The notes under the pieces: generated by a model
The model's input: the letters and a program-made list of their open reading frames with translations, nothing else
The model's database searches: none
What the model was told of the DNA's origin: nothing
Assembly (NCBI GenBank): GCA_963818475.1
Contig: CAWFSF010000006.1
Coordinates: 384,001-448,000, forward strand
Length of the DNA: 64,000 bases
Source of the DNA: Nitrospirota bacterium
GTDB lineage: Bacteria; Nitrospirota; UBA9217
Direction of reading: 5' to 3'
Shown: piece by piece, positions 5,440 to 57,237 of the stretch
Position numbering within the stretch: position 1 is the stretch's first letter
Layout of the letters: every line of letters begins with the position of its first letter
Program-made: the position numbers and the translations under genes

Positions 5440-5556
5440 TGGGCAAAAATGAGCAGGCTGTGCGCATTATCGCTCATTGCGATAGCCTTTACAGTCACTA
5501 CCATTTTAAATTATTATTGTTTTTCAATTAATTACTACTATGGCACGGGTATTGCT
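5440..5556 (+). promoter_or_regulatory. Sigma-54 promoter with upstream palindromic activator sites
   Basis: TGGCAC-GGGTA-TTGCT at 5541-5556 is a perfect -24/-12 consensus. TGCGCATTATCGCTCA is at 5461-5476, with a weaker site 21 bp upstream. IHF-like tttcaattaatta is at 5522-5534. Confidence 0.8.
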
Positions 5557-5810: not shown

Positions 5811-6479
5811 ATGAAAAAAATGATCGTTGTAACAGTAGCACTGGCTTTTGTGCTCTTGAGCGCCGGAGCGGCACTGGCCGCTCTCGCGGGCAGCAAGCAC
5901 GACATGAGGACCTACCTGACAGGTCAGACGGGTGGATACGACGAAGTCTGCGTCTATTGCCACACGCCGCACAGCGCATCAATGACAGCTCAGCTCTGGA
6001 ACCATACGGCTTCCTCAGTAGGTTCCTACCAGACCTATACAAACACCTGGGGAACCTTGCAATCCGTTCCAGGAACCCCCGGCAATGGGTCGCTGCTCTG
6101 CTTAAGCTGTCATGACGGCACCGTTGCTGTTGATAACCTGGTCAATCCGCCGAACAGCGGCTCCCAGGGGAGTAATGACGGCGGCGGCGAACTTAATGCT
6201 TCTAAATATATCACTTCCGGAAGAGCTTCAAATTTTAGCACCGATCTCAGGAACGACCACCCGATCGGCTTCGCGTATAACGCCTCCCTCGTAACTAACG
6301 ACGGCGGACTTGTTGATGCGAATACCGTTGGAAATAGCACCTATGTGCGTATTATCAATGGTATTGGCGGTACTGTAGAGTGTGCAACCTGCCACGATGC
6401 TCACAATACAACGGTTCCACCGTTCCTGCGGAGCTCCAACGCGGCATCAGCGCTCTGCACCCGTTGCCACACTAAGTAA
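5811..6479 (+). CDS. Tetraheme c-type cytochrome, OmcE-like (doubled CXXCH family)
   Basis: Signal peptide, then SKHD...CVYCHTPH...LWN...CLSCHDG...DLRNDHP...ECATCHDAH...PFLR...LCTRCHTK. This is the motif order I recall for Geobacter OmcE. Confidence 0.88.
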   Translation: MKKMIVVTVALAFVLLSAGAALAALAGSKHDMRTYLTGQTGGYDEVCVYCHTPHSASMTAQLWNHTASSVGSYQTYTNTWGTLQSVPGTPGNGSLLCLSCHDGTVAVDNLVNPPNSGSQGSNDGGGELNASKYITSGRASNFSTDLRNDHPIGFAYNASLVTNDGGLVDANTVGNSTYVRIINGIGGTVECATCHDAHNTTVPPFLRSSNAASALCTRCHTK

Positions 6480-11568: not shown

Positions 11569-12327
11569 ATGATCCACGGAAAAAAACTCATTGTTGTCAT
11601 GCCTGCCTATAACGCGGAAAAAACGCTTCGGCAGACCTATGCGGAGCTGCCTCATGAGTATGTTGATGAGGTCATTCTGGTGGATGATGCCTCCGGGGAT
11701 AATACGACCACGGTTGCCCATGATCTTGGCATCACCACAATCGTGCATGCTGAAAACAGAGGATACGGTGCAAACCAGAAGACCTGCTATCGGGAGGCGC
11801 TGAAGCTGGGCGCTGACATCGTGGTGATGGTCCACCCCGATTATCAGTATTCACCTCGGCTGGTAACCGCCATGGCATCCATGATCACTTCGGGGCATTA
11901 TGATGTTGCACTGGGATCAAGGATCCTGTGCGGCGGGACCTGGCAGGGAGGAATGCCCCTGTACAAATATATAGCCAATCGTTTTCTCACGCTGGTCGAG
12001 AACGTGATGCTCGGCATCAAATTATCCGAGTTCCATACCGGCTACCGCGCCTTCAGCCGGAAAGTGCTCCTTGCTCTGCCCTTAGGGGAAAATTCCGATG
12101 ATTTTGTTTTTGATAACGAGATGCTTGCCCAGTCGGTATACCGGGGGTTCAGGATCGGCGAGATAAGCTGTCCCACGAAATATTTTGACGATGCTTCCTC
12201 GATCTCGTTCACGCGCAGCGTTCACTACGGATTCGGTGTCCTGGGGACGTCGGGAAAATTTGTGCTTCAGAAGCTCGGTCTCGCAAAATTTGCCCTGTTT
12301 AGCAGCACCGGGAAAAAACTGTGCTGA
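11569..12327 (+). CDS. GT2 glycosyltransferase, polyprenol-phosphate mannose synthase-like
   Basis: [34 protein letters not shown] and HTGYRAF motifs. Confidence 0.9.
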
Positions 12328-16395: not shown

Positions 16396-16627
16396 GAGCA
16401 GGCCGGCAAGCGCCTTATCGGCAGAGCAGACCAGCGTGTTCTTTCTGAACTCAGCAGTCCCCCTGTCCGTCTCACCTCACTCATCTGATACCAAATTCCG
16501 CCAAGCCGACTGACGCAAATCAGATGATGGCTTGCTGTAAGATAGCTGAGAAACCTCTTGTTTGTCAAGAGAATTAATCATATCAGGAACTTGCTTTTGC
16601 AGTATCTTTTTGGTATTCTGCCCTACC

Positions 16628-18808
16628 ATGACGACGCGGCAAAAAGAACAGCAGACGGGGTTCAAGGCAGTGCTCTACCTTCTGGGGTTCATGTTCTTGA
16701 CCGCGGTCGCCGTAGTGCTGCAGCTCAGGTTCAGGGGGTTTGAAGGACCCCTCTCGGACAGCCTCCTCATTATCGTCCTGATCAATGCCAATTTCCTGCT
16801 GCTGGCGGCGGTCATCGTCATGATCGCCCGCAGTCTCTGGAAACTGTCGATCGAGAGGAAGCAACGGGTGCTGGGGGCCAGGTTCAGGACCAAGCTGGTC
16901 ACCGCCTTCGTCAGCCTGTCGTTCATTCCGCCGGTCCTGCTGTTCATCATCGGCAGCGGCATGTTCACCAGCAGCATCGAGCGGCTCTTTAACCTCAGGA
17001 TCGAGAACTCGCTCAAAGCCTCCCGTTCCGTTGCCCAGGCATATTACGACCTCCTCGATAAAAAGGCGCTCGCCTTCGGCAGGGAGATCAGCAGGCAAAT
17101 GGCTGAGGAACAGCTGCTGAACCGCTTTGAACGGCCGGTGCTCAAGGAGTATCTTGCCCGCAAAGCGGCCGAGTACGACCTGGGCGGGATCGAGCTCATT
17201 ACCGCCTCCCGTGAACGGGCGGTTACCGTTGTTACGGGACAATTCCCGGCGAAAACGTTCAGCGCCACTTCCTCCGAGCTGGCCGCGCAGGCATTATCCG
17301 GCAGGCCCGCCTCCGGCATCATCGAGTTGGGGAGGCGGGGGCAGATCGTACGCACCGTGGTCCCGCTCCGTGCCTCCGCCGAGGACCGTCAGGTGACGGC
17401 GCTGATCAGCATCAGCTACTATGTACCCGAGAACCTTGCATCAAAAGCGGCTGAGAGCAGCACAGGATATTCGCAATACCGGGCGCTGCGGACCGAAAAG
17501 GAACCGATCAAGCTGGCCTATCGGCTCGGGTTTCTCGCGGTAACGCTGTCCCTGCTTCTCGCCGCCATCTGGGTCGCGCTCCGCGTGGCGGCCGGAATCA
17601 CCGTTCCGATCCAAAAGCTGGCCGAAGGGACGGCTGCAGTAGCAGCCGGCCGGTTCGATTACCACATCGACGAAGCGCCGGGAGACGAGGTCGGGGTACT
17701 GATCAACTCATTCAACAAAATGACGAGCGACCTGAAGCATTCCCGGGAGCGCCTGGAGCAGGAGGTCGCGTACAAGGAAACCATCCTTTCGAACATCGAT
17801 ACCGGTGTTGTGTCCATGGACCGCGCCGGCCGGATCACCACCATCAATCGGGCTGCCTCGGACATTCTGAGCGTCCAGGATCAGGATGTACTCTTCAAAC
17901 GATATGACGAGGCTTTCAGCTTTATCGAACTGGGACCGGTGCGCACGTTGTTCAGCAGACTTGAGAAAGGGCCGGGCCAGGCGGAGGAGGAACTGTCGCT
18001 GACAGTGCGCGGCAGGGTCCTGACGCTCCGCATGAGGGTCACGATGCTGCGGGACAGCGGCGGGGCGCTGGTCGGATCGGTCATCACCTTTGACGATCTG
18101 ACGGAGCTGCTCAGGGCGAAAAAGGCGGAGACCTGGCAGGATGTGGCCCGCAGGATCGCTCACGAGTTTAAAAATCCGCTCACTCCCATCAAGCTCTCGG
18201 CCGAACGCCTGCGGAAAAAACATGCCGAGGGCGCTGCGGATTTCGATGCGGTTTTCGATGATTGCAGCCGCACAATCGTTCAGGAAGCAGATGCTCTGCG
18301 AAAGTTGGTCGATGAGTTCGCGAACTTTGCCCGGATGCCGAGTTCGAATCCTGTGCCGCAGCCGCTCCACCTGGTCCTGGAGAGCGTCATATCGCTTTAC
18401 GCCGGTGCGCATAAGGACATCTCCTTTGTGAGCCGGTTCCAGGCCGATATGCCCGATGTGCTGCTGGACCGGGAGCAGGTGAAGCGGGTGTTCATCAATC
18501 TCTTCGAAAATTCCGTTGAGGCCATGGGCGGCAAGGGCACGATCTGGATCACGACGGCCATGAACGCCTCGGGCAGGGCGCTGGTGGAGGTAGCGGACAG
18601 CGGGCCCGGCATCGCGCCCGAGGATGTCCCGCGGGTGTTCGAACCGGATTTCTCCCGGAAGAAAAAGAATGGCGGTCTCGGGCTGGCCATCGTGCACAAG
18701 ATCATCGCCGACCACGGCGGCTCGATCCGTTTTGAGCAGAACACACCAAGGGGTGCACGCTTTATTATAGAACTCGCTGTCAGGGACAGGGAAGTTCAGA
18801 GTTCATAG
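16628..18808 (+). CDS. ntrY: NtrY-like sensor histidine kinase (TM, HAMP, PAS, HisKA, HATPase)
   Basis: GARFRTKLV..F, HAMP (PI.KL...DEVG.L...FN.M), H-box ARRIAHEFKNPLTPI, N box NLFENS, G boxes DSGPGI and GLGLAI. Confidence 0.85.
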   Translation: MTTRQKEQQTGFKAVLYLLGFMFLTAVAVVLQLRFRGFEGPLSDSLLIIVLINANFLLLAAVIVMIARSLWKLSIERKQRVLGARFRTKLVTAFVSLSFIPPVLLFIIGSGMFTSSIERLFNLRIENSLKASRSVAQAYYDLLDKKALAFGREISRQMAEEQLLNRFERPVLKEYLARKAAEYDLGGIELITASRERAVTVVTGQFPAKTFSATSSELAAQALSGRPASGIIELGRRGQIVRTVVPLRASAEDRQVTALISISYYVPENLASKAAESSTGYSQYRALRTEKEPIKLAYRLGFLAVTLSLLLAAIWVALRVAAGITVPIQKLAEGTAAVAAGRFDYHIDEAPGDEVGVLINSFNKMTSDLKHSRERLEQEVAYKETILSNIDTGVVSMDRAGRITTINRAASDILSVQDQDVLFKRYDEAFSFIELGPVRTLFSRLEKGPGQAEEELSLTVRGRVLTLRMRVTMLRDSGGALVGSVITFDDLTELLRAKKAETWQDVARRIAHEFKNPLTPIKLSAERLRKKHAEGAADFDAVFDDCSRTIVQEADALRKLVDEFANFARMPSSNPVPQPLHLVLESVISLYAGAHKDISFVSRFQADMPDVLLDREQVKRVFINLFENSVEAMGGKGTIWITTAMNASGRALVEVADSGPGIAPEDVPRVFEPDFSRKKKNGGLGLAIVHKIIADHGGSIRFEQNTPRGARFIIELAVRDREVQSS

Positions 18809-21918: not shown

Positions 21919-21979
21919 TTTGAGTTCTTGCGAGTTTCTCAAGTTTGAATATTTGACAATTTAGAACTGGAAATTTCTT

Positions 21980-26417: not shown

Positions 26418-26505
26418 TATTAACATTGCAACAATCATAAAAGGGCAATAGTTGTATGACGATAAATTGCTCTTTAAGTAGTTGAATTTATTTAGGAGTA
26501 TTGAA

Positions 26506-27261
26506 ATGTCAAGAAAAAGCATGCTGGTTAATCTGATGATAATATGTTTTATGTTTACCTTCTCAGGTATGGCTTCCGGTGGCACTATTGCCGGCAGCAA
26601 GCATGACTTTTCGAAGAACGAATTGCCAATTGTAACCTATTTTGCCGGAAACTTCACGTCCGGAGGTGATGAAATCAGAGAGACGTGCGTGTTCTGCCAC
26701 ACCCCGCATGCTGCTTCGACAGCGGTGACAGGGTTTCTCTGGAACCGGACCGGTTCTTCTGTGGCTAACTATGATATGTACACCAGCACAACGCTTTCCG
26801 TCGTCCCTGACTCGAGGCCGACCGGCTTGACGCTTATGTGCATGAGCTGTCATGACGGCGTAACCTCCATAGCGGTTGGAACGCTTATAAATGCGCCCGG
26901 GGCAGGCCCTGTTGACCTGGTCGCTCCTGGTGCCTATCAGTTTATCGGCGAGATTTACTACCCCAGTCCTTTTTTCGGTGGTGAATGGCAGGCGAATATC
27001 GGCAACCTTACCCCGGATGGCACCTTCGGCACGAGGGCGAACCTTAGTGATGACCACCCGGTATCGTTTACGTGGAATAATAATGTCCCCGGCATTTTCG
27101 ATCCAGGCGAGTGGACGGGAGTTGGTGCGACAGCGCTCAAACTTTTTAATAACAGGATGGAATGCTCCACGTGTCACAATGTGCATGATAACACAAACGC
27201 GCCTTTTTTAAGGATGTCGAATGCTGATAGCGCTATGTGCACAACGTGCCACGACAAGTAA
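26506..27261 (+). CDS. Tetraheme c-type cytochrome, OmcE-like (paralog of 5811)
   Basis: RBS aggag; signal peptide; IAGSKHD...CVFCHTPH...LWNR...CMSCHDG...DDHPVSF...ECSTCHNVHDNTNAPFLR...MCTTCHDK. Confidence 0.88.
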   Translation: MSRKSMLVNLMIICFMFTFSGMASGGTIAGSKHDFSKNELPIVTYFAGNFTSGGDEIRETCVFCHTPHAASTAVTGFLWNRTGSSVANYDMYTSTTLSVVPDSRPTGLTLMCMSCHDGVTSIAVGTLINAPGAGPVDLVAPGAYQFIGEIYYPSPFFGGEWQANIGNLTPDGTFGTRANLSDDHPVSFTWNNNVPGIFDPGEWTGVGATALKLFNNRMECSTCHNVHDNTNAPFLRMSNADSAMCTTCHDK

Positions 27262-30056: not shown

Positions 30057-30085
30057 GGCGCTTAAAGCACGAAGGAGCGGGGACT

Positions 30086-42711: not shown

Positions 42712-43920
42712 GTGTCTGAGGCGAAGTCCATGCGCGAACAATTGAAAAACGGCTTTCTCCTTGTATGTTCCGTTGTTCTCGTGCTCCTGATGCTGGAACT
42801 GGCGCTCGCGCTTTTTTGGCCCCATAAAGTCACGTTTCATCCTTATCAGGCGGAACACTGCCAATACGACGAATTCCTGGGATGGGTAAACAAGCCGGAC
42901 CTCGACGGTTTTGTGAAGGTCAGTGACCGGATCGCTTTTCACCGACGACATAACAGCAAAGGCATGCGGAGTCTCAGAGAGACGGGCTATGAGAAGCTGG
43001 CGGGAGTCAAGCGGGTCCTGGTCCTGGGCGATTCGTTCACCTGGGGGTTCGGGGTTGACGATCAACAGGTCCTGACGCACCTTCTCCAGCAAAAGACCGG
43101 AAGCGGGATCGAGATCCTGAACGGGTCGGTCGTCGGCTACGGTACGGACCAGGAATTCTTGTGGCTCGAGCGGGAGGGGTTGCGCTACTTGCCGGATCTG
43201 GTGGTCCTCGCTTTTTATGTCGGCAACGATTATGAAGAGGTATCCCAGTCTCTCTCCTACGGCTATCCCAAGCCGTATTTCGATATTGACGAGCAGGGAC
43301 TGCTTCTCGGCAATGTGCCGGTGCCGGACACCCGGGAAACCCGCCGGAAAGGGTTTGATAAACCTTCATCGATGTTCGGCAGATTCAAGAAATTCCTGCG
43401 TTACAACACGCATACCTATCCGTTTCTTGCCGGTCGCCTCAATTCTATTCCCCGGCTCCGGCATTTTATTCTGAAGACCGGGATCGGCGAGGAGTTCTCG
43501 CGAAATCTGCCGGGCGTTCCCTATCGCCGTGTCGCACCCGAGAAGGTGAAGCCCATTGTCGAAGCCTTGATCCGGTCGATCCGTGACATTGCGGCCAGCC
43601 GGGGAGCGCAGCTCCTCCTGATGCCGATACCGGCGATCGAGGAAAACCCTAATAAGGCGATCGGCTACCGCGGCCAAGTTGACTGGAATGAGGCGTTTGC
43701 GGATAATGAAAAGGAGAATAACTATCTGAAGTCCTTTGCCAGGGCGAACGGGATTCAATTTCTCGACCTGCTGCAGATAATCAGGGCTCAGCACCGAAAG
43801 GGTTTAGCGCTTTATAATATCAACCCGGACGACCATCACTGGAACTCGGAAGGCCATCGGGTTGCCGCAGAGGCTCTGTATGATTGGATCAAAGCATATG
43901 ACTGGAACCGGAAGAAATAA
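42712..43920 (+). CDS. SGNH/GDSL-family membrane-anchored esterase/acyltransferase
   Basis: VLGDSFTWG, GYGTDQ, GND and DHHWN..GH motifs. Confidence 0.85.
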   Translation: MSEAKSMREQLKNGFLLVCSVVLVLLMLELALALFWPHKVTFHPYQAEHCQYDEFLGWVNKPDLDGFVKVSDRIAFHRRHNSKGMRSLRETGYEKLAGVKRVLVLGDSFTWGFGVDDQQVLTHLLQQKTGSGIEILNGSVVGYGTDQEFLWLEREGLRYLPDLVVLAFYVGNDYEEVSQSLSYGYPKPYFDIDEQGLLLGNVPVPDTRETRRKGFDKPSSMFGRFKKFLRYNTHTYPFLAGRLNSIPRLRHFILKTGIGEEFSRNLPGVPYRRVAPEKVKPIVEALIRSIRDIAASRGAQLLLMPIPAIEENPNKAIGYRGQVDWNEAFADNEKENNYLKSFARANGIQFLDLLQIIRAQHRKGLALYNINPDDHHWNSEGHRVAAEALYDWIKAYDWNRKK

Positions 43921-44158
43921 CTGCACCGGCGCGCTAACGGACAGAAAAACGCTTGCGAGACGGCTTTTGCATTGGTGGCGCATTTTTGCCGCGGCGCTGG
44001 GGAGAGTGAATACAATGCTGCTTCTCGGTGTTCTGTTTCTTCTTGTGGTCACGCCGATCGGTCTTTTAGGCCGGCTGTTCCGAAAAGAAAAAATTCTGCG
44101 CGGTAATTCCGCCTGGACCTCACGCAGTGACGATGGCACCTATGAAAGGCAGTTTTGA
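43898..44158 (+). CDS. SxtJ-family small membrane protein
   Basis: W..FA.ALG.VNT.LLL..LF.LV.TPIGL..RLF and a terminal RQF; adjacent to the carbamoyltransferase. Confidence 0.75.
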   Translation: MTGTGRNNCTGALTDRKTLARRLLHWWRIFAAALGRVNTMLLLGVLFLLVVTPIGLLGRLFRKEKILRGNSAWTSRSDDGTYERQF

Positions 44159-45847
44159 ATGCATATCCTGGGTCTGTCCTGTTTCTATCACGACGCGGCA
44201 GCATGCCTTATCCATGATGGGAAACTGGTTGCCGCTGCCCAGGAGGAGCGCTTTTCCCGGGTCAAGCATGACTGGCGGTTTCCGGAAAAAGCCATTCAAT
44301 ACTGTCTTAGCGAAGCGGGGATATCGGTCGACGATGTCTCCCTCGTGGCATTTTATGAAAAGCCGATTTTAAAGTTCGAGAGGGTCCTCGAGACCTTTCT
44401 TGCTGTCGCGCCGCGCGGGATCCTGGCCTTCATGGAAACCATCCCCTCCTGGTTGAACCAGAAGCTCCGGGTCCCCGATATTATCCGCAAGAATCTGGGC
44501 TACCGGGGTCCTCTTATCTTCGTTGAACACCACATGGCACACGCTGCGAGCAGTTTTTTTTTCTCTCCCTTTGACGAAGCCGCTGTCCTGGTCCTGGACG
44601 GCGTAGGTGAGTGGGCTACTGCCTCCTATGGAACGGGGAATGGCAACCGATTGTCGCTTTCTCATGAAGTTACTTTTCCTCATTCTCTCGGCCTTTTATA
44701 CAGCGCGTTTACCGCATATCTCGGTTTTGAAGTTAACGATGCCGAATACAAGGTAATGGGCATGGCCTCCTATGGATCGCCCGTTTTCCGGGAAACGATC
44801 ACGCAAAATCTGGCGCATATCAACCCGGACGGCAGCCTGACGTTAAATATGAAGTATTTCTCCTTTCAGCACGGGAAAAAGATGTTTAACGGCCACTTCG
44901 AGCGTCTGTTCGGAAGTCCCGGCCGGACGCCTGAATCGGAACTTTTGCAAAAGCATTTCGACATCGCCGCCAGTATTCAGGCCGTAACCGAAGATGTCGT
45001 GCTTTCCATGGCCCGTTATGTGCATCAGCAGACCGGTATGCGGTGTTTATGCCTGGCTGGCGGGGTGGCCTTGAACAGCGTGAGCAACGGCAAGCTGCTG
45101 CGGGAAGGGCCTTTTGACGAGCTGTTCATTCAGCCGGCTGCGGGAGATGCGGGGGCCGCCCTGGGAGCGGCCTATGCGGGGCATCACCTGTACTTAAAAA
45201 AAGAAGAGCGGCACCGGCTTGGCAATGTGTACCTCGGTCCCTTTTATCAAGACGCAGATCCCTCATCGCTAGCCGGGCCTGGTGTGCTTACGCGTATATT
45301 GGACGATCCTCTTCTGGTTGAGGAAGTCGCCCGGCTCCTTTCAGAGGGGAAGGTCATCGGGTGGCACCAGGGGAGGATGGAGTTCGGCCCTCGCGCTCTG
45401 GGGAACAGGAGTATCCTGGCTGACCCGCGTAAATCCGGCATGAAGGACACCGTGAACAGGATGGTCAAGTTCCGTGAAGCCTTCAGGCCTTTTGCGCCGG
45501 TTGTTACGGTGGAAGACGCAGAACGTTTTTTCTCTATTCGTGGAGAGAGTCCCTTCATGCTCTTGACCTTTCCGGTCAAAACCGATAAACTTCCGGCAGT
45601 GACGCACGTTGACGGCTCCGCGCGGGTCCAGACCGTGTCAAAGGAGCAGAACGAAAAACTCTATGCCCTGCTTCGCGCTTTTGAGCGGCTTACCGGCGTG
45701 CCGGTGCTGCTCAATACCTCGCTGAATCTGCGGGGCGAACCGATCGCCTGCTCTCCCGAGGATGCATATCACTGTTTTGTCCGGAGCGGCATGGACGGCC
45801 TGGTTGTCGGACAGGCCTTGTTCATGAAGGAAGCGGCATCCCCGTAA
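44159..45847 (+). CDS. O-carbamoyltransferase (NodU/CmcH family)
   Basis: YHDAAA, AAQEERFSR.KH, EHH.AHA.S, GGVALN, GRMEFGPRALGNRSIL, HVDGSAR.QTV and NTS.N..GEPI motifs. Confidence 0.95.
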   Translation: MHILGLSCFYHDAAACLIHDGKLVAAAQEERFSRVKHDWRFPEKAIQYCLSEAGISVDDVSLVAFYEKPILKFERVLETFLAVAPRGILAFMETIPSWLNQKLRVPDIIRKNLGYRGPLIFVEHHMAHAASSFFFSPFDEAAVLVLDGVGEWATASYGTGNGNRLSLSHEVTFPHSLGLLYSAFTAYLGFEVNDAEYKVMGMASYGSPVFRETITQNLAHINPDGSLTLNMKYFSFQHGKKMFNGHFERLFGSPGRTPESELLQKHFDIAASIQAVTEDVVLSMARYVHQQTGMRCLCLAGGVALNSVSNGKLLREGPFDELFIQPAAGDAGAALGAAYAGHHLYLKKEERHRLGNVYLGPFYQDADPSSLAGPGVLTRILDDPLLVEEVARLLSEGKVIGWHQGRMEFGPRALGNRSILADPRKSGMKDTVNRMVKFREAFRPFAPVVTVEDAERFFSIRGESPFMLLTFPVKTDKLPAVTHVDGSARVQTVSKEQNEKLYALLRAFERLTGVPVLLNTSLNLRGEPIACSPEDAYHCFVRSGMDGLVVGQALFMKEAASP

Positions 45848-45904
45848 CGGTATCCGCGGACTGCGCAGAGGAAGACATTCACAGATGCATAAATGAGGTG
45901 GCTT

Positions 45905-46063
45905 ATGGGACACATCACACTTCTCAAGGAATTATGGGCATTTCTCCGGGTCAGGAAAAAATACTGGCTCCTCCCTATTATTTTCATGCTGCTGCTGCTG
46001 GGCGCTTTGATCGTATTCACGGAAGGCAGCGCCCTTTCGCCATTCATCTATATTCTTTTCTAA
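45905..46063 (+). CDS. DUF5989/SxtK-family small membrane protein (52 aa, not in the ORF track)
   Basis: Hand translation: MGHITLLKELWAFLRVRKKYWLLPIIFMLLLLGALIVFTEGSALSPFIYILF. RBS gaggtg. Confidence 0.85.
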   Translation: MGHITLLKELWAFLRVRKKYWLLPIIFMLLLLGALIVFTEGSALSPFIYILF

Positions 46064-46140: not shown

Positions 46141-46241
46141 TGAGCGAAAAAGCTCATCTGATCCCGTTCTTTGTTGCACAAAGCCGCTAAGTATTTGATT
46201 TTTAGCTTTATTTAATAAAAGACTATGGCAACTGTATTGCA
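46141..46241 (+). promoter_or_regulatory. Sigma-54 promoter with upstream palindrome and IHF site
   Basis: TGGCAA-CTGTA-TTGCA at 46226-46241; TGAGCGAAAAAGCTCA at 46141-46156; IHF match (reverse complement AATCAAATACTTA) at 46188-46200. Confidence 0.72.
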
Positions 46242-46503: not shown

Positions 46504-48915
46504 ATGAATGGTCTGTCGCAGGATAGGTTTGCTACCCGGCGTTTAGGCCTTGTCATTTTCATCATAGCCGCGCTGATCTATCTGAATTCCCTGTCGAATG
46601 GCTTCGTCTGGGATGATACTCCTATCATCTCTCAAAACCGCCTGCTGACCGGTCTGGAAAATCTGCCCCGCCTGATCGCCTCCCCGGACAGTGCTCCCGG
46701 CATCGGCACAACTTACTATCGGCCCGTCACGTATCTCTCTTTTTTTGTGAACCGGATGACCGGTGGGGAAAATCCTTTCGGCTTTCATCTGGTAAATATT
46801 CTGCTGCATGCCGCGGTATCCCTGGCGCTGTTCGCTCTCATCACCCTGCTGTTCGGTGACCGTCTCCTTGCGTTCCTGGCGGCAATCCTTTTTGCAGCAC
46901 ATCCGATCAATTCGGAAACGGTCAATTTTCTCTCCGGCGGCAGGAACACCCTGCTCTCGGCGCTGTTTGCGCTACTCACGTTCATCGACTACGTCAAAGG
47001 ACGCAGCCGCAGATCGCTGCTTTGGTTCAGCCTGTCGGTCTTCTCAAAGGAATTCGGACTGGTTTTGCCATTGATGCTGTATGCCCATGACCGGTTGGTC
47101 AGCAGGGAGCGGAAACCTTTCGGCGCCTACGCGCCTTATATCGCGGTTGTTGTTCTGTACCTCGCGGCCCGGACGGTTGTTCTGAAGGGCGCCGGGACCC
47201 TTGACCTCGAGATCCTCGGCGACCGGCTGTTGTTCGTTCCCCGTCAGTTTGCCGACTACCTGCGGGTGCTCCTGTTCTCGGTCGTGCCGCAATTGCCGGG
47301 CAGAACGGAGCTTCCCCTGGCCCTTGATGGGGGCGCCGGTATCGCGGCCCTGATTCTTATTGGCGCCGGAGTTTTTTTCTACCGGTTCCGGTCATTCCCG
47401 GTAGTGCGCTTTGCGGGGTTCTGGCTGCTGCTTTTTTTCCTCCCGGTCAGCAACATTCTTCCCATCGGCTATACTCTTATGGCTGACAGATACGCCTATT
47501 TCATGTCCATGGCCGTGAGCCTGCTCATTGCTTTTGCGCTTCTTTCGGTTTTCCGGAACAGGCAAAAGGCCATTGCGGTCGCTGCACTGATGTGCATAGT
47601 GTTCAGCGTCATGGTCGTGCGTCGCAATATGGTATGGCGCAGCGACGAAACGCTCTATCGGCAAATGATCGTTGATTCACCCGATTCAAGCATCGGCTAC
47701 TATAATCTCGGTCTGCTTCTCTATGAAAAAGGAGAAACGGAACAGGCACTGAATCATCTGCAAAAAGCCGCCTCCACGGTCCCCTATTCCAGTGACGCTC
47801 CCTACCTGCTCGGGTTCGCGTCGGCTGAACTGGGCATGATCGACAATGCGCTGTCTTCATTCCATAAGACCATAGCCCGGGACCCGGAGCATTTTATGGC
47901 ATACCTTCTGCTCAGCCGCCTTTATGAAAGCCGGGGAGACCACGTTTTGGCCGAATCATACCGCTCCAAAGCGCTGGAGCTGTTGCCGAACCTGGAAAGA
48001 ATTATTTCCCCGCGTGCCGAAAGGATAGCAGGCGATGCATGGAGAATGCAGGCCCGTGGAGCGATGGCAAATGCAAAGTCTCTTTTTCAGAGGGCGCTGC
48101 TGTTCGATCCCCTGTTCCCCGAAGCACTCGTAGGATTGACCGCGATTCAGCCGGGAAAGGGCGATTCAGACCCCGGTCCGTTCTTTGAACAGTCCGATAA
48201 CTGCTCTAAGTGCCACTCAATGAGGGAGGCCTATGACAGCTGGAAAGCGTCACCGCATTCAAGGGCCGGATGCCTCGAATGCCACGAGTACGATGCAAAG
48301 CGTATGGCGGGCAATCAGCTTAATCATCTCGAAGGAAATCACGGTGCGAAACACAGAACTATTGTCAATAGAGCGTCTTGCCTTGCCAAGGGATGCCACG
48401 AACAGAGATTGACCGACCCGATCGTTCGTTATTCACGCAGGGATATATTCTTTGATCATACTCATGCAACAGGGATGCGGCGGGGGATCATCTCACTGCG
48501 TTGCCGGAGTTGCCATGCTGAAGTCGGGCATGGAAAAGAAAAAAACGTGGCTAAGGAAGTGTGTTTTCTCTGCCATTTCAAAAATACGGGTAAACCGCAA
48601 CAGGCCTTTACCGGCTGTCCCTCCTGTCATCCGGCCCCGAAGGGGAATATTGTCTTCAAAGGAATGGTTTTTTCGCACGAGAAAAAGCTGCGGCAAGGCT
48701 ATACGTGCCAGGACTGCCATAGGAAAGTTGTGAAGGGGAACGGTAATGTCCCGAGAGAGCGCTGCAGCCATTGCCACCCCGACAGGTCCGCGAAATACGG
48801 TGATAAGGCGTTGATCCACAAAAAACATGTGGAGGGGATGCAGATCTACTGCTTTGAATGCCACGAAAAGATCGAGCACGGGAAGATCGAAGTCTCGGAT
48901 CGAAGCCGCAAATAG
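46504..48915 (+). CDS. Fusion protein: TMTC-like GT-C glycosyltransferase, TPRs and a nonaheme cytochrome c
   Basis: FVWDD, YYRP, FH..N..LH, HPI..E.V, SKE and ADRY.Y motifs, then TPRs, then 8 CXXCH plus 1 CX4CH from 48202. Confidence 0.85.
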   Translation: MNGLSQDRFATRRLGLVIFIIAALIYLNSLSNGFVWDDTPIISQNRLLTGLENLPRLIASPDSAPGIGTTYYRPVTYLSFFVNRMTGGENPFGFHLVNILLHAAVSLALFALITLLFGDRLLAFLAAILFAAHPINSETVNFLSGGRNTLLSALFALLTFIDYVKGRSRRSLLWFSLSVFSKEFGLVLPLMLYAHDRLVSRERKPFGAYAPYIAVVVLYLAARTVVLKGAGTLDLEILGDRLLFVPRQFADYLRVLLFSVVPQLPGRTELPLALDGGAGIAALILIGAGVFFYRFRSFPVVRFAGFWLLLFFLPVSNILPIGYTLMADRYAYFMSMAVSLLIAFALLSVFRNRQKAIAVAALMCIVFSVMVVRRNMVWRSDETLYRQMIVDSPDSSIGYYNLGLLLYEKGETEQALNHLQKAASTVPYSSDAPYLLGFASAELGMIDNALSSFHKTIARDPEHFMAYLLLSRLYESRGDHVLAESYRSKALELLPNLERIISPRAERIAGDAWRMQARGAMANAKSLFQRALLFDPLFPEALVGLTAIQPGKGDSDPGPFFEQSDNCSKCHSMREAYDSWKASPHSRAGCLECHEYDAKRMAGNQLNHLEGNHGAKHRTIVNRASCLAKGCHEQRLTDPIVRYSRRDIFFDHTHATGMRRGIISLRCRSCHAEVGHGKEKNVAKEVCFLCHFKNTGKPQQAFTGCPSCHPAPKGNIVFKGMVFSHEKKLRQGYTCQDCHRKVVKGNGNVPRERCSHCHPDRSAKYGDKALIHKKHVEGMQIYCFECHEKIEHGKIEVSDRSRK

Positions 48916-48967: not shown

Positions 48968-50137
48968 CTATTTTGCCAGGTTGTCATCCCTCAGTTTCCC
49001 GGAGATGGCCCTGGCCGCGTAGCGGTGTCCCTCGGCGTTGAAATGATCGTCCATGGGGTGGTACAGGGGCACGCCTTTTCGGGCTGCGGACCTGATCGCC
49101 GGGAGGAGGTCGAGGTAGCTGACTCCGTTCACGTCCGAAAACATTCGCAGGTGATACGCCATTACGTCGTTTTCCTCCCCTTCGATAATAATCCGCTTAT
49201 AGCCGAGGCGGGCGTCGGGTAATTCCTCCTTGCCGGGGATATGCACGAGCAGGAACCCTGCCCCGTTCAGCCGCGCGACAGCGCGCATTTCCCGTATAAG
49301 GGCAAAGGTCAGATCCATTTTGTCTTCGATACTGGGAAGTTCGTAGTAGGATAGGCCGGCATATTTTTTTGTATATTCTTCTCCAAGCCCTGTCGCAAGG
49401 AACAGGCTCCTGAGGAAGGGAACCGAATTTAAGCGGCCCACCAGAAAATTGTACGAGTGGATATTACGGCGAAGGAATTTTTTCAATTTGCCGAAGGCCG
49501 TCGGGGGGTTGTCGAACATCTTCCTCTCTATCTCGGTGGTGTGGGGCACCGGTGTGAACATGAGCCTGAGCGGGGAGCCGAGGCCGAACATGGGCTTGGG
49601 ATACCCATAGCTGATATTCGCGCCATTTTCGCCCACGTCGTTTCCGTAAAAAGCGTAGATGACGACGTCCGGTTGATATTTCAGCCCTTCTTCAAGCAGG
49701 AAGAGGAGGGATTGGTCGGTGCCGTATCCGGAACACCCCATGTTAATGACCTCCGTACCGGTGAGTTCCCGGTTGAGCACCTCTGAAAAAGTTTCGTTAT
49801 CATCGACCGCGGAACCCCAGGCAAAGGAATCCCCTATGACCGCGATCCGCCTCACACCAGGTGGTTTTTCGTAATCCGCTTCGTGCGCCCTCAGCCCCTT
49901 GCTGTTGATGGTCACGTAGGTCGAAAAGTCGGTTGAAGAGAAAACTCCTTCCGTCAGCGGCTTGTTTCTCCAGCCCAGCACGCGGTCGTATTGGCAGAAA
50001 TACCGTTGGATGAAGAATGGCCTGGCAATGAATTTGGAGGGATGGAAGAGGACGAGAGTAATTTCCAGGAAAATAAGGAAAAAGAGGACGCTTCCAAGGA
50101 GCAACAAGGCATTTATGGTCCGTTGCTTAAGTCTCAC
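48968..50137 (-). CDS. SGNH/GDSL-family protein (paralog of 42712)
   Basis: IGDSFAWG, GYGTDQ, GND and DDHFN..GH motifs. Confidence 0.85.
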   Translation of the reverse strand: MRLKQRTINALLLLGSVLFFLIFLEITLVLFHPSKFIARPFFIQRYFCQYDRVLGWRNKPLTEGVFSSTDFSTYVTINSKGLRAHEADYEKPPGVRRIAVIGDSFAWGSAVDDNETFSEVLNRELTGTEVINMGCSGYGTDQSLLFLLEEGLKYQPDVVIYAFYGNDVGENGANISYGYPKPMFGLGSPLRLMFTPVPHTTEIERKMFDNPPTAFGKLKKFLRRNIHSYNFLVGRLNSVPFLRSLFLATGLGEEYTKKYAGLSYYELPSIEDKMDLTFALIREMRAVARLNGAGFLLVHIPGKEELPDARLGYKRIIIEGEENDVMAYHLRMFSDVNGVSYLDLLPAIRSAARKGVPLYHPMDDHFNAEGHRYAARAISGKLRDDNLAK

Positions 50138-50245
50138 GACTTATACTATATACAAATTATCAGGTTTCGTCCAATGATTTTTCCCACACGTTTTTTATTT
50201 GACAATAGCAGGCGATTCCTTTAATTTGTAGCATTGCTCTTCTCT

Positions 50246-51067
50246 ATGAAGGTAAAAATTAAAAATAAAAAGCTCAAAATCGTCTTTTTTTTATGCCTCG
50301 CTTTCGCGGTATTTGCCATCCTGGCATTCGCCATTACCAGTGTTGTTTTCAAAAATCCCGACAACTGCATCAAATGTCACTACATGAGGCCTTTTTATGA
50401 CACCTGGAAGTCCTCGGCCCATGCGGGATCCGGCTGCCTTACCTGCCATGATTACGGACCTACGCGAATGATCGGAAATCAACTCAAGTATCTTGCCGGC
50501 ACGTATAACCCGAAACCCCGGACCATTGTGCCGAGGCTGGTTTGTATTGCCGAGGGGTGTCATGACGAGCGACTGGTGGATCCGGTCGTCAAATACTCGC
50601 GCAGGGGGATCTTTTTCAGCCATACTCACGCGACCGAGGTGAGGAGGGACATCATCAAACTTCGATGCCGCAGTTGCCACGTGAGTGTGGGCCATTCGAA
50701 AGGGAAAAGCGTCGCAAAGGAGGTCTGCTTTATCTGCCATTTTATCAATACGGGCGACCTCCAGAAGGCGGTGACGGGCTGTCCGTCGTGTCATCCCTCA
50801 CCGAAGGGGGATATCCTCCACGACGGCAAGAGGTTCTCCCACGAGGCGGCGCTCCGGAAAGGCCGTGTGTGCAGAGATTGCCATGTAAAAATCGTAAAGG
50901 GAAGAGGGGAAGTCCCCCGGGAACGCTGCCATCTTTGCCACGTAGACCGGTTTGACAAATACGGCGATAAAGCGCTGATCCATAAAAAACATGTGGAGGA
51001 CCTGCAGATATACTGTCTTTACTGTCATGAAAAAATCGAACATGGAAAGATAGAAGTCTCGCATTGA
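50246..51067 (+). CDS. Membrane-anchored nonaheme cytochrome c (NapC/NirT-like N-terminus)
   Basis: N-terminal TM; CIKCH..W..S.H..CLTCH; CIAEGCH; six further CXXCH motifs. Confidence 0.88.
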   Translation: MKVKIKNKKLKIVFFLCLAFAVFAILAFAITSVVFKNPDNCIKCHYMRPFYDTWKSSAHAGSGCLTCHDYGPTRMIGNQLKYLAGTYNPKPRTIVPRLVCIAEGCHDERLVDPVVKYSRRGIFFSHTHATEVRRDIIKLRCRSCHVSVGHSKGKSVAKEVCFICHFINTGDLQKAVTGCPSCHPSPKGDILHDGKRFSHEAALRKGRVCRDCHVKIVKGRGEVPRERCHLCHVDRFDKYGDKALIHKKHVEDLQIYCLYCHEKIEHGKIEVSH

Positions 51068-51077: not shown

Positions 51078-52733
51078 ATGAGCGAGCAGGAACGCCGTCC
51101 AGTTCTCCGCTACCTTGCCCTCGTCGTTTTTATCGCGGCTGGTTTGCTCTATGTAAATTCGCTTGGTAATGGATTCGTCTGGGACGATTCTTTTATCATC
51201 GTCCAGAACCCCCTGATGCAGGGAATAAAAAATCTGCCTCGTCTCCTGGTTTCCGAGGACACGTTCCCCGGGGTACGGATCGGATGTTACCGTCCCGTCG
51301 CCTATTTCAGTTTTTTTCTCAACCGCCTGATCGGGGGCGGGGGCCCCTTCAGTTTTCATCTCGTAAATCTGCTGCTCCATGCCACAATATCCGCGGCGTT
51401 GTATGTCCTGATCGCCAGGCTGTTTCAGGACCACGTCCTGGGGTTCCTTGCGGCACTCCTCTTTGCCGCCCATCCGATCAACGCGGAAACCGTCAATTTT
51501 CTGTCGGGCGGCAGGAACACCCTCCTTGCCGCGCTGTTTACACTCATGTCTTTTATCACCTATGCGCGGGGACAGCGCCGCTGGTCCATCGTCTGGTTCG
51601 GCCTTTCGGCCTTCTCCAAGGAATTCGGTCTGATCACGCCGGCGATGCTGTATGTTTATGACCGCTTCGTAAAAAAGGAACGGAAGCCCTTCAGGAACTA
51701 CGCTCCCTATATTGCAGCGGGTGTCGTGTACCTCGCTGTCCGGAGCTTTGTTCTGGGCGGTGTCGGCCCCCTGGGGCTCGAAGCTCTCGGCAGCCGGCTT
51801 CTGTTCGTCCCCCGGCTTTTCGCGGACTACATGCGTGTGTTCCTGTTTGCCGTCCAGCCGAAACTCCCTCGCTGGACTGAGTTTCCAGAGGCGTTCGATA
51901 CCGTCGCCATCACCGCCGTGCTGGCTCTTTTCGCCGTAGGAGCGCTTATTTATTGGTTCCGGTCTTTCCCGGCAATCCGCTTTTCCGGCTTCTGGCTGCT
52001 GTTGTATTTTCTTCCTGCTGCCAACATTCAGCCGATCGGTTATATTCTGATGGCCGACCGGCATGCGTATTTCATGTCCATGGGCATCAGCCTGCTGGCG
52101 GCTTTTACAGTTCTCCGTCTGTTCCGGAGCGATCGGCGGGCGATGGCCACGGTCGTCGTTGTTTGTTTGCTGTTCAGTGCCATGGTTGTCCGGCGCAATG
52201 CCGCCTGGCGCAGCAATGAAACACTCTATCGCCAGATGATCGCCGATGCTCCCGACTCCAGCATCGGCTACCAGAATCTGGGAATGCTCCTCTACGACAG
52301 CGGGGAATCGGAGCAGGCGTTGGCCCCGCTTGAACGGGCCGTGGCCACGTCCCCGGTGTCCGAAGACGCGTTGTTTGCGCTCGGCACGTTGTACGCCGAA
52401 CTCGGCATGCCCGACAGGGCGGTAGTCTCCTTGCAAAAAACAGCGGCCCTGAATCCCGATGATTTCAGGGTTTTCCTCATGCTCAGCCGGCTTTATGAGG
52501 GCAGGGGAGAACTCGCGCTAGCGAGGTCGTATCGCGATAAAGCACTTGGGCTCATGCCGCAAATAGAGCGGATTCTCGCTCTCCGCGCGAAACGAATGTT
52601 CGAGCAGGCTGAGGAGGCACGGGCACTTGGCAGCGTCATGAAGGCCGAACGATTTTACCGCCGGGCGTTGCTCTATGACCCCCAGTCCGCGGCCGCACAG
52701 GCCGGACTGAGGGCAGTCGTCACGGAGAAATAA
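51078..52733 (+). CDS. TMTC-like GT-C glycosyltransferase with C-terminal TPRs
   Basis: Same motifs as the N-terminal ~550 aa of 46504 (FVWDD, YRP, HPINAETV, SKE, ADRH.Y, RN..W). Confidence 0.85.
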   Translation: MSEQERRPVLRYLALVVFIAAGLLYVNSLGNGFVWDDSFIIVQNPLMQGIKNLPRLLVSEDTFPGVRIGCYRPVAYFSFFLNRLIGGGGPFSFHLVNLLLHATISAALYVLIARLFQDHVLGFLAALLFAAHPINAETVNFLSGGRNTLLAALFTLMSFITYARGQRRWSIVWFGLSAFSKEFGLITPAMLYVYDRFVKKERKPFRNYAPYIAAGVVYLAVRSFVLGGVGPLGLEALGSRLLFVPRLFADYMRVFLFAVQPKLPRWTEFPEAFDTVAITAVLALFAVGALIYWFRSFPAIRFSGFWLLLYFLPAANIQPIGYILMADRHAYFMSMGISLLAAFTVLRLFRSDRRAMATVVVVCLLFSAMVVRRNAAWRSNETLYRQMIADAPDSSIGYQNLGMLLYDSGESEQALAPLERAVATSPVSEDALFALGTLYAELGMPDRAVVSLQKTAALNPDDFRVFLMLSRLYEGRGELALARSYRDKALGLMPQIERILALRAKRMFEQAEEARALGSVMKAERFYRRALLYDPQSAAAQAGLRAVVTEK

Positions 52734-54961: not shown

Positions 54962-55001
54962 AGCATACTCGGGCAGAATGCCTCACTTTGAAAGGAGTAT
55001 T

Positions 55002-55838
55002 ATGTCTCCCGTAGAAACCGTCTTATTCTGGATATGTCTTCTTGCCTATGCATTGGCAACAGGCGGATATATCTATTCGTTTGTCTTCAAAAACGAAAAG
55101 GTCCTTCCCAAGCTGATGCTCCTGGTTACGGTTGGTTTTGTTCTCCATACCGCTACTATCGCTGCGCGATATTACGCCCAAGGGCATCTTCCCTGGAGCG
55201 GAGATTATGAAAACGGGCTCATGGGGGGCTGGTTCGTCATGGTATTGACGGTGTATGTCGTACGGCAGCAGAAACAACTCCAGGCACTGGCGGCGGTGAC
55301 TGTGCCTTTTACCCTGTTAATGATGGGCTTCGGCGTAATGCGGAACCCGACACTCGGGCCCATGGCGGCTTCTCTCAAGTCCTTCTGGCTGTTGATCCAC
55401 GTATATTTCGCCTGGCTGGCTTTCGGAGCGTTCGCGCTCGCCATGGCCGCCGGCATTCTTTATTTGCTCAAGGAAAAAGACGCTGCGCAGCCGGCACAAA
55501 ACCCGGTTTATGGTCGTTTTCCCTCTATCACCAGACTCGATGAATTGATGTTTCGCTACATAATCTTCGGGTTCATCACCGATGCTATCATGATCGCCGC
55601 GGGCGCCATCTGGGCCAAGGATTTGTGGGGAAGCTACTGGAGCTGGGACCCGGTCGAGACGTGGTCCCTGGTGTCATGGCTCATGTACGGCATCATCATC
55701 CATCTCCGCATGACCTTCGGGTGGCGGGGCCGAAGGCTTTCCTGGCTGACGATTTTCGCTATCGTCGGCATGATCATCACCTTTTTCGGCGTCAACTTCG
55801 TCGTCGAAAGCAGCTTCCACCTTTTTAACGTCAGATGA
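55002..55838 (+). CDS. ccsA: Cytochrome c biogenesis protein CcsA/ResC (system II)
   Basis: RBS aaggag; L.S.WL.IHV; WWD domain GAIWA...WGSYWSWDPVETW; conserved His residues. Confidence 0.93.
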   Translation: MSPVETVLFWICLLAYALATGGYIYSFVFKNEKVLPKLMLLVTVGFVLHTATIAARYYAQGHLPWSGDYENGLMGGWFVMVLTVYVVRQQKQLQALAAVTVPFTLLMMGFGVMRNPTLGPMAASLKSFWLLIHVYFAWLAFGAFALAMAAGILYLLKEKDAAQPAQNPVYGRFPSITRLDELMFRYIIFGFITDAIMIAAGAIWAKDLWGSYWSWDPVETWSLVSWLMYGIIIHLRMTFGWRGRRLSWLTIFAIVGMIITFFGVNFVVESSFHLFNVR

Positions 55839-57237
55839 TCCGCAAAGTCCTTTCCATAGCGTCATCACTGCGTTTTACGCTGATCTTGATCGTGGCGCTG
55901 TCGATCATATTCCTTCTCGGCCTATGGATACCCCAGAAGGGGTTGTTCACCCGTGAGGTTTACGTTCAATGGAAGACCAATTCTCCCGGGTCTCGTAACA
56001 GCGCTCGAAACCCTGGGGTTTACGGATATCTATACTGCCCCGATAACCATGGCCCTCTGGGTTCTTTTTTTCCTCAATCTCGTGTTTGGTCATGTTCAGA
56101 CGGCTGGATGTCGTCAAGGCTAAAATACGCCTCTCCGAGGACAAGCAGGAAGACCCGTCGACGAGTTCGCGATACCGGTACCGCAAGAGCATTCCTCTGT
56201 CAACGGAACTAGAACGCGATGCAGTCGCGCGAGCGCTTAAGCAGGAGGGGTATCGGGTTTTCGGACAGCCTGAGCGTTTTTACGCCGTAAAAAATCGTTT
56301 TTCGCCGGTTGCCACGATACTGTTCCATTTAAGTTTTCTTCTCATTCTTGCCGGAGGCATAGTTGGCCTCTATACACGTTTTTCCGCTTATCTCGATTTG
56401 GCTGCCGGAGAAGAGATCGACGGTTCCCTTGACCGGTTCACGAAACCTCTGACAATCCCTAAGATCGGCGCAATCCCGTCGGGAAGCTTCAAAGTCACGG
56501 ATATCCGTCCCGAGATGATTGGTGACACTCCGGCCGGTCTGCAAGTCGACATCCTCGATCCCGCCGGGAAGATCACGACTGCGGATATTAACAAACCATA
56601 CAAACCGGGAAAAGTGTCTTTCGTAGTCAAGGACCTCGGGGTGGCTCCGCTGGTAATTCTGCAGGACCGTTCGGGGAAGGAAGTGGACGGCGCCTATGTG
56701 AAGCTCAATGTGCTGCGCGGTAAGCAGGACCACTTCAAATTGCAGGGCGTCACCTTTACGGTCGATTTTTTCCCGGATTATGCTGTTCAGGACGGCATTG
56801 AAATATCACGTTCTGAAGAAGTTCGGAATCCTGCCTTCAGGTTTGCTTTGCAAGGGAGGGATTCCGTGCCCCTGCAGAGCACGATCCGTCCCGGTGAAGA
56901 GGCAGCGCTCGGCGCTTACCGGCTGAAGGTGCCCTCGGTACTGTACTGGGTCCGCTTCTACGTTGTGAAGGAGGAAGGGCTGGAATTGGTCTACGCAGGA
57001 TTCTTTCTCTCCGTTTTCGCGCTGATCTGGCGTTTTGGCTATTATCAGCGGGAACTCGTGGGCCGCAGGATAAACCAGGAAGGGAAAGAAGTTCTGCTCC
57101 TGGCCGGGCGGGCGGAGTTTTACCCCGCGCTTTACGAGGATGAATTCAATGAGCTGACGGAGAGGATAATGAAATTTTCCAACCGGGTGAACTCAGATAT
57201 GAAGCGGCCAAGTGCGGACAGCCGGGAGCCCTTGTGA
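55835..57237 (+). CDS. resB: Cytochrome c biogenesis protein ResB/CcsB, interrupted by two +1 indels (about 55988 and 56085)
   Basis: ASSL.F..ILI...G.WIPQ, then GFTDIYTAP...FFLNL in an intermediate frame, then LFHLSFLLILAGG and INKP. Coupled to ccsA by ATGA. Confidence 0.82.

Follow-up and report, generated by a model that had tools for sequence, protein, structure and literature searches.

Why should a single bacterial gene encode both a membrane glycosyltransferase (GT) and a multiheme c-type cytochrome, and does the joining reflect a working relationship between the two? The question was raised by an 803-amino-acid open reading frame (ORF) in a 64,000-nucleotide stretch of contig CAWFSF010000006.1 from a Nitrospirota bacterium (assembly GCA_963818475.1), referred to here as the window. 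The encoded protein consists of a GT-C domain, an arm of tetratricopeptide repeats (TPR), a short linker and a nine-heme cytochrome domain, and the window also carries an unfused paralog of each half in two neighboring genes (Table 1). The fusion is a new domain architecture made of two known kinds of protein, and it was found only in this lineage. The explanation that we favor, tentatively and with a probability of about 45%, is that a genuine, lineage-confined fusion hard-wires a partnership between the cytochrome and the GT-TPR protein that already existed locally, in a locus for OmcE-type nanowires and glycosylation.

The anatomy of the fused protein was established by comparing its halves with the stand-alone proteins using BLASTP. 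Residues 5-552 aligned without gaps to the 551-amino-acid GT-C/TPR protein (321/548 identical, 59%), and an equally gapless alignment paired residues 561-798 with residues 39-276 of the 277-amino-acid cytochrome (158/238 identical, 66%). The initial annotation of this DNA had drawn both parallels, the first for residues ~1-550 and the second with all nine heme motifs intact, and the alignments bear it out. Each of the two cytochromes has eight motifs of the CXXCH type and a single CX4CH, all at matching positions. In a Kyte-Doolittle scan, the last segment of the fused protein resembling a transmembrane (TM) helix was found at residues 354-372, and the split cytochrome has a strong one at residues 16-34. 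Because no TM-like segment follows residues 354-372 in the fused protein, the linker Q549-Q563 carries no remnant of the cytochrome's anchor, which also agrees with what had been annotated. The homology to the cytochrome begins at about F560/F561. Both GT paralogs stop resembling their orthologs (P0024-P0037, 36-43% identical) at the same point, past which the orthologs run on for about 50 amino acids that include one further TPR. The stand-alone GT copy ends at this point of divergence, and the fused copy adds a few degenerate residues (GKGDSD versus QGRIDE) before it enters the cytochrome exactly at the start of the cytochrome's periplasmic part (FFEQSDNC versus VVFKNPDNC). In the fused protein, the GT-C domain stands in the place of the TM anchor of the cytochrome, and the heme domain stands in the place of the last TPR. 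A role of the GT domain as membrane anchor had been listed as one option, and this replacement of one anchor by another is seen directly in the anatomy. The order of the genes in the split locus, cytochrome and then GT, is the reverse of the order in the fusion; therefore, loss of a stop codon between the split genes did not make the fused gene. This simple origin had been discounted in the annotation as well, and the extra TPR that the orthologs possess where the fusion has hemes points the same way.

The fusion is real, and its junction is present in two independent assemblies. A protein identical to that of the window is found in a public collection, on a 2.35-Mb contig, and a separate assembly of 7,764 bp encodes an 803-amino-acid protein identical at 802 of 803 positions, the sole difference being at residue 132. 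The reading frame 46504..48915 is uninterrupted across 2,412 bases and every conserved motif is kept. A chimera produced by a mis-join or by collapse of paralogs is excluded because the fused halves have diverged by 34-41% from the stand-alone genes. When the split cytochrome was used as query against proteins of 152-485 amino acids, none of them proved to be a free-standing twin of the fused heme domain.

The annotation had described the architecture as unfamiliar, and no second protein fused in this way was found when domain architectures were searched from the cytochrome side and from the GT side. On the cytochrome side, 21 proteins of 441-1406 amino acids hold the domain, and the only one that also has TPR is the query's own cluster. 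On the GT side, cytochrome Pfam domains are carried by one of the 120 listed relatives, which is again the self cluster, and none of the 109 newly fetched GT-TPR relatives has any CXXCH. When 1.84 billion representatives were scanned exhaustively with HMMER, no fusion was seen among the best 150 matches, which comprised 147 proteins of the GT-TPR type (with at most one CXXCH each) and three pure cytochromes. The ten nearest clusters among the Atlas look-alikes were PMT_2/TPR proteins, none of them cytochrome-bearing. The library clustered at 50% identity hid the query behind its unfused paralog, and another fused protein could be hidden in some other cluster in the same manner; searches at 90% identity from both sides argue against such a hidden second fusion. 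A literature search found no description of a GT/multiheme cytochrome/TPR fusion among the papers listed or in their accessible text, a result that is not proof of its being unpublished.

Table 1. Positions of the fused gene, its parts, its split paralogs and other features of the window (position 1 is the first nucleotide of the window)
Feature	Position	Strand	Size or residues	Remarks
Fused ORF (its four parts follow in the next rows)	46504..48915	+	803 aa
GT-C membrane domain, 11 predicted helices, N-terminus predicted cytoplasmic	46504..47640	+	residues 1-379	AlphaFold2 model, Foldseek
TPR arm, predicted periplasmic	47641..48147	+	residues 380-548	Pfam TPR; one repeat shorter than orthologs
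Linker (QPGKGDSDPGPFFEQ)	48148..48192	+	Q549-Q563	not hydrophobic
Nine-heme c-type cytochrome domain	48193..48912	+	residues 564-803	8 CXXCH + CLAKGCH; Pfam Cytochrome_C7 / Cytochrom_c3_2
Sigma-54-type -24/-12 consensus match (TGGCAACTGTATTGCA)	46226..46241	+		TGGCA-N6-TTGCA; 278 bp upstream of the fused ATG
Split paralog, membrane-anchored nine-heme cytochrome	50234..51067	+	277 aa	273 aa from the ATG at 50246
Split paralog, GT-C/TPR protein	51078..52733	+	551 aa	10 bp 3' of the cytochrome gene, same strand
OmcE-type tetraheme nanowire subunit homolog	5811..6479	+		9yuq_N E 2.3e-34, 7tfs_A E 7.8e-28 (phmmer vs PDB); 4 CXXCH
Second OmcE-type homolog	26482..27261	+		7tfs_A E 3.7e-22, 9yuq_N E 2.8e-20; 4 CXXCH
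GT2 glycosyltransferase, likely maker of the polyprenyl-phosphate-sugar donor	11569..12327	+		Pfam Glycos_transf_2 E 1.2e-21
CcsA-type cytochrome c assembly protein, putative role in heme loading	54978..55838	+		Pfam Cytochrom_C_asm E 5e-41

The membrane half was identified by its fold. Comparison at this level was needed because a sequence profile of the TM domain produced no match to PDB sequences at E ≤ 10. The AlphaFold2 model of residues 1-379 has 11 long helices (pTM 0.91, mean pLDDT 88.9) and predicts a polytopic membrane domain of the GT-C fold. When this model was compared with the PDB using Foldseek, ranks 1-29 were all GT-C-fold chains, mostly glycosyltransferases, among them Pmt4 (9i5k), STT3, PglB, ArnT (5f15, TMq 0.55), AglB, AftD, DPY19, ALG12 and Emb. 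The probabilities were 0.99-1.00 and the TMq values 0.34-0.56, and the E values (1.5e-3 to 3.3e-2) were modest. Ranks 23 and 29 were glycosylphosphatidylinositol-transamidase chains, which we take to be the GT-C-like PIG-U subunit. With the whole 803-amino-acid model as query, TPR matches dominated. In this full-length model the pLDDT is about 90 up to residue 490 and low afterwards, so that residues 500-560 and the heme domain are modeled with low confidence. Pfam TPR_1, TPR_2, TPR_16, TPR_17 and TPR_19 matches were found at residues 384-495.

The short loops that follow helices 4, 6, 8 and 10 are rich in lysine and arginine (KGR, VSRERKP, FRSF and FRN), and the loops that bear the conserved motifs are on the opposite side of the membrane. 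Taken together, the model helices and the loop charges indicate that the N-terminus is probably inside and the C-terminus outside. Because the lysine- and arginine-rich loops would be cytoplasmic and the motif loops opposite, the TPR arm and the heme domain are predicted to be periplasmic. It is in the periplasm that c-type cytochromes receive their hemes. Across 47 aligned TM domains, it was seen that D37, D38, Y72, R73, P74, P134, E138, E183, P314 and Y332 are invariant and that K182 and R329 are nearly so. The motifs found in predicted periplasmic loops are D37-D38, Y72-R73-P74, H133-P134...E138, K182-E183 and D328-R329..Y332. The first of these, within FVWDD, comes directly after TM1 in the first extracytoplasmic loop, the position of the acidic motif of GT-C enzymes.

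The annotation had labeled this half TMTC-like. For TMTC1-4, the accessible text of Eisenhaber et al. (PMC7801869) gives the motifs M1-M7 as DD, SHKSYRP, RxD, KE(T/Q)xxT, DW, PxxP and ERxxY, and assigns the DD, (SHKS)YRP, KE and ERxxY motifs to catalysis, metal binding and dolichyl-phosphate-mannose binding. Compared with that list, DD, YRP, KE, a conserved proline in the helix that precedes DRxxY, and DRxxY itself were seen in the fused protein (M1, M2, M4, M6 and M7), and M3 (RxD) and M5 (DW) were not recognized. The fused protein shares with the TMTC1-4 and PMT-type enzymes an arrangement of 11 TM helices followed by a C-terminal, non-cytoplasmic TPR arm, as read from loop charges and the model, together with DD in the first outer loop, YRP, KE and [D/E]RxxY. 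It differs from them in that its last TPR is replaced by the cytochrome, and also in its presumed donor, which for a protein of bacterial origin would be a polyprenyl phosphate sugar of bacterial type. A further difference is the lack of family matches: at E ≤ 0.01, Pfam DUF1736 (PF08409) was matched by neither the fused nor the split GT, and PMT and PMT_2 were not matched by the fused protein. Only one of the 120 listed relatives (P0252) carries PF08409. Pfam and NCBIfam are confident only about the TPR, and the GT families stayed below their cut-offs (Mannosyl_trans2, E 0.0019; GT87, E 0.0017). Relatives are named 'protein O-mannosyl-transferase' and 'transmembrane and TPR repeat-containing protein F38B6.6' in their sources. 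The TMTC-like label thus stands as regards the predicted fold and topology and the DD, YRP, KE and DRxxY motifs, but it does not extend to DUF1736, which was undetected. The TPR arm can also be compared with CcmI/CycH, the TPR chaperones of apocytochromes in cytochrome c maturation, which likewise have a TPR module that is anchored in the membrane, faces the periplasm and occurs in a context rich in cytochromes. However, TPR_CcmH_CycH was matched only weakly, by the 551-amino-acid paralog (E 3e-4) and by P0024 (E 2e-9), all scores being below the 42-bit cut-off, and the membrane part is here a GT-C enzyme.

The cytochrome half belongs to a small family that includes eight clusters of 269-271 amino acids, 45-49% identical to the split copy, and the 277-amino-acid P0101. 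No variation was seen in the nine heme motifs or in another seven histidines across 17 aligned members, including the fused one, and all members other than the fused one begin with a hydrophobic helix that represents an N-terminal TM anchor. The Pfam models Cytochrome_C7 and Cytochrom_c3_2 were matched above their cut-offs, at 31.8 and 31.0 bits. The many CXXCH motifs mark the domain as a multiheme c-type cytochrome, whose export is expected from the topology and whose heme loading is predicted. Its first heme motif is CXXCHxM, as in NrfH, and the N-terminus of the split cytochrome aligned to NrfH (2j7a_C, E 1.4e-4) over a span that includes the helix and the CXXCHxM motif. With Pfam Cytochrom_NNT, the split copy scored 23.9 bits against a cut-off of 24.1 and the fused copy had no match; NCBIfam NrfH scored 31-41 bits against a cut-off of 134. 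Like the membrane-anchored, quinol-oxidizing NrfH, NapC, NirT and CymA proteins, the split paralog has a TM helix that leads directly into CXXCHxM and a second CXXCH. Unlike them, it has nine hemes instead of four, a CX4CH site and scores below the cut-offs, and the fused copy is devoid of the TM helix. The N-terminal TM anchor followed by a tetraheme core that characterizes the NapC/NirT/NrfH proteins was not found in the fused protein, in which no such anchor precedes the hemes. Judging from the sequence, the split cytochrome is best described as an NrfH-like, membrane-anchored, nine-heme protein rather than as a demonstrated member of the NrfH family.

The Geobacter protein CbcL is reportedly a fusion of a periplasmic multiheme c-type domain to a polytopic b-type cytochrome with a quinone site. 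If so, the two proteins would be alike in having a multiheme c domain anchored by a multi-helix membrane protein rather than by a single helix, but the membrane part is here a glycosyltransferase without an evident redox cofactor site. Longer relatives of the cytochrome have 11-29 CXXCH motifs. One of the relatives, P0020 (766 amino acids), has about 317 unassigned residues ahead of an NNT-like region, and another one, P0019 (705 amino acids), has precomputed cNMP-binding and CBS Pfam domains. Since both carry non-cytochrome parts, the heme module has been joined to other partners elsewhere.

The relationship between the fused gene and the split pair was analyzed using maximum-likelihood trees, in which, for each of the two domains, the fused copy groups with the split copy as its sister (GT, 100/100; cytochrome, a Shimodaira-Hasegawa-like approximate likelihood ratio test value of 100 in a quick tree). 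A search of the window revealed no further paralog of either domain, no relic of a cytochrome gene ahead of the fused gene and no trace of the lost final TPR behind either of the two GT copies. A complex prediction for the split pair (551 and 273 amino acids, each with its own alignment and without hemes) returned a score of 0.00; as it was run with no controls, it speaks neither for nor against binding.

By its gene content, the window is best read as an OmcE-type nanowire locus with glycosylation genes. The structures matched by the two OmcE-type homologs are 9yuq_N, a model that accompanies the study of OmcE from D. soudanensis, and 7tfs_A, presumably OmcE of G. sulfurreducens. In addition to the genes shown in Table 1, the window encodes two PMT_2-type GT-C proteins, a ResB-like protein, NHL and FG-GAP beta-propellers, a SurA-like peptidyl-prolyl isomerase, several TPR proteins, two SGNH paralogs and a carbamoyltransferase. 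The accessible text of PMC13712944 reports that in Geobacter and Geomonas the OmcE clusters have resB/ccsB close by and that behind them come 15-70 genes for GT2, GT4 and GT39 enzymes, sugar modification and TPR proteins, and it interprets densities on G. sulfurreducens OmcE as glycosylation. The window resembles these clusters of the Desulfuromonadia in its two OmcE genes, NHL proteins, resB/ccsA, GT2, GT39-like PMT_2 and TPR proteins. The accessible part of that report makes no mention of a GT-cytochrome fusion.

To place the GT-TPR family in a wider context, 72 loci with GT-TPR relatives were collected from GTDB species genomes using a 9-sequence alignment as query; the source genome is not among them. 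The best of these loci, from Geobacteraceae, were at 33-38% identity. A GT2 homolog was present in 21 of them, with identities up to 75%, and a CcsA homolog in nine, three of which are Geobacter loci where it is 64-67% identical. These resemblances of GT2 and CcsA to Desulfuromonadales sequences are no more than a hint of kinship. In three Nitrospirota loci (L035, L036 and L065), the order of the genes is a 26-heme ORF, a 16-heme ORF, GT2 and the GT-TPR match, with an NHL homolog between the cytochromes and GT2 in L035 and L036. Genes of the GT-TPR family are thus found near those for making lipid-linked sugars and maturing cytochromes, and in some cases near large cytochromes.

According to the reading that we favor, a TMTC/PMT-like GT-C enzyme would have lost its last TPR and gained the periplasmic nine-heme domain of an NrfH-like cytochrome without the signal-anchor helix. 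The last GT-C helix (353-377, running from in to out) would then export the TPR arm and the apocytochrome, and the hemes would be attached by the CcsA/ResB system encoded nearby. Placed in the inner membrane beside a multiheme cytochrome, the GT-C/TPR enzyme would use a polyprenyl-phosphate sugar made by GT2 and glycosylate exported proteins, most plausibly the cytochromes of the locus itself; we infer the formation of a complex, the substrate and the donor alike. Both halves most likely still work, because all the GT catalytic motifs and the nine heme motifs have been kept. That the fusion fixes an existing partnership is suggested by the unfused pair, which is adjacent and co-oriented, and by the co-duplication of both domains. 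Several observations weigh against this reading. A homolog of the nine-heme cytochrome was found within 8 kb in none of the 72 GT-TPR loci (tblastn, E ≤ 1e-5), and an ORF with at least three CXXCH motifs was found in only eight of them. Because none of these loci holds that cytochrome, its pairing with the GT-TPR protein seems specific to the lineage of the window; the initial annotation had taken the fusion as a Rosetta-stone link between protein glycosylation and electron transfer, a view that is weakened by this lack of a conserved association of the two families. No GT or NrfH family reaches its Pfam or NCBIfam cut-off. The terminal branches of the fused copy are 1.5-2 times longer than those of the split copy in the two domain trees (0.48 versus 0.31 and 0.60 versus 0.30). 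The fused copy has evolved faster, through relaxation or adaptation, and the longer branches could mean relaxed constraint. Finally, the TM helix of NrfH-type proteins contributes to the quinol site, and its loss, which removes that contribution, may have deprived the heme domain of its original job.

The confinement of the fusion to one lineage, the absence of this cytochrome from the 72 loci and the longer branches of both fused halves would fit an uncoupled swap of anchors, that is, a chance joining, by deletion or recombination, of two periplasm-facing neighbors that left the GT-C domain as a mere tether or the cytochrome as a tolerated passenger, with halves that are independent or one of which is decaying. 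The topology is sensible without any interaction between them. We consider such a swap a serious rival to the favored reading, if somewhat unlikely, since the unfused paralogs are adjacent too, only 10 bp apart, both domains were co-duplicated, the catalytic and heme motifs were all kept despite 34-41% divergence from the paralogs, and GT-TPR genes recur beside multiheme cytochrome genes in another phylum. The pairing of cytochrome and GT in an operon could also mean that the nine-heme cytochrome, free or fused, is the glycosylation client of the GT-C/TPR protein itself. The established view (PMC7801869, accessible text) is that TMTC-type enzymes bind protein clients through their TPR arms, and glycosylation of OmcE has been proposed (PMC13712944, accessible text), but a covalently tethered substrate would permit one turnover per enzyme, a situation for which no known precedent was found. 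The OmcE homologs of the locus are more obvious clients, and no glycosylation site was identified, which makes this pairing of enzyme and substrate quite improbable.

Redox-gated glycosylation, in which the tethered nine-heme domain would control the activity of the GT-C domain through its redox state or its heme loading, had been put forward in the annotation on a par with anchoring. None of the results supports it and we regard it as very unlikely. The physical linkage of the two domains is the one point in its favor; the link is not conserved, and because of the low model confidence at residues 500-560 and in the heme domain, no contact between the domains can be read from the model. It also counts against gating that, to our knowledge and with no specific search made, no GT-C enzyme is redox-regulated. 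As for an assembly artefact or a dead gene, the recurrence of the same 803-amino-acid ORF with one substitution in a separate assembly, the divergence of its halves, which rules out a mis-join of the two stand-alone genes, the lack of a stand-alone twin of the heme domain in the size range searched and the open frame with its intact motifs leave this scarcely credible.

Glycosylation of extracellular cytochrome nanowires has only recently been proposed, with the enzymes left unassigned in the accessible text (PMC13712944), and a fusion located in a locus with two OmcE homologs offers a concrete candidate, open to experimental test, for an enzyme working on cytochromes or next to them. A heme-staining membrane glycosyltransferase would have a built-in purification handle, and the fusion shows that the single helix by which an NrfH-like cytochrome is anchored can give way to a polytopic enzyme. 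As a long shot, the TMTC-like GT-C/TPR enzymes of nanowire loci might be glycosyltransferases devoted to cytochromes, with multiheme cytochromes docking on their TPR arm; the fusion would then freeze one such complex, and the tethered nine-heme module would report heme loading or redox state. Were this true, glycosylation and transfer to nanowire assembly would be reserved for cytochromes that are mature and electron-competent, and this form of periplasmic quality control would couple glycosylation to electron transfer.

The fused gene is preceded by an exact match to the sigma-54 consensus, as had been annotated. This site, with its GG-N10-GC elements, is a predicted promoter. The window contains two exact TGGCA-N6-TTGCW matches, of which the other, at 5541..5556, is upstream of the OmcE-like gene at 5811, and a site with one mismatch, at 26402, is found before the second OmcE-like gene. 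When up to one mismatch was allowed, 19 matches were observed versus 8.95 expected, a number that was reached in none of 100 shuffles. No gene for an enhancer-binding protein or sigma-54 activator was recognized in the window, including the vicinity of the NtrY-like kinase at 16562..18808. These matches suggest that the fused gene may be under sigma-54 control.

Other features of the window and of the related loci were observed. A MacB/FtsX-ABC-FtrD-like cluster is located upstream of the GT-TPR match in 7-11 of the 72 loci, mostly from Geobacteraceae/Desulfuromonadales. The window has such a MacB/FtsX-FtsX-ABC-FtrD-like set at 20403-25207, upstream of the second OmcE-like gene, and it is shared by loci L003, L004, L008, L011, L016, L018 and L022 (also L014 and L020). 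Tandem arrays of 4-6 GT-TPR paralogs occur in several loci of Nitrospirota metagenome-assembled genomes, namely L035 (five copies, 8001-16388), L042 (920-11086), L029 and L050. Between the second OmcE-like gene and the fused gene, a 2,789-amino-acid ORF (30053-38422) has 48 CXXCH and 15 CX4CH motifs with Pfam GSu_C4xC__C2xCH repeats, and three identical or nearly identical minus-strand 16-mers at 33959, 35342 and 36398 suggest that it contains long internal tandem repeats. On the 3' side of the CcsA gene, a 125-amino-acid ORF (55835-56212, no Pfam match at E ≤ 0.001) and a 383-amino-acid ResB-like ORF (56086-57237) overlap by 127 bases in different frames and could represent a frameshifted or a truly split ResB. 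The fused gene is flanked by the two SGNH paralogs, which are AlgX-like and 44% identical to each other (regions 42712-46063 and 48968-50137), and the carbamoyltransferase (44159-45847) and a small hydrophobic ORF (~45906-46063) are also near. The SGNH/AlgX-like pair and the carbamoyltransferase point to a possible O-acyl or carbamoyl modification of a glycan. An SGNH homolog is also found in locus L019, immediately upstream of the GT-TPR gene.

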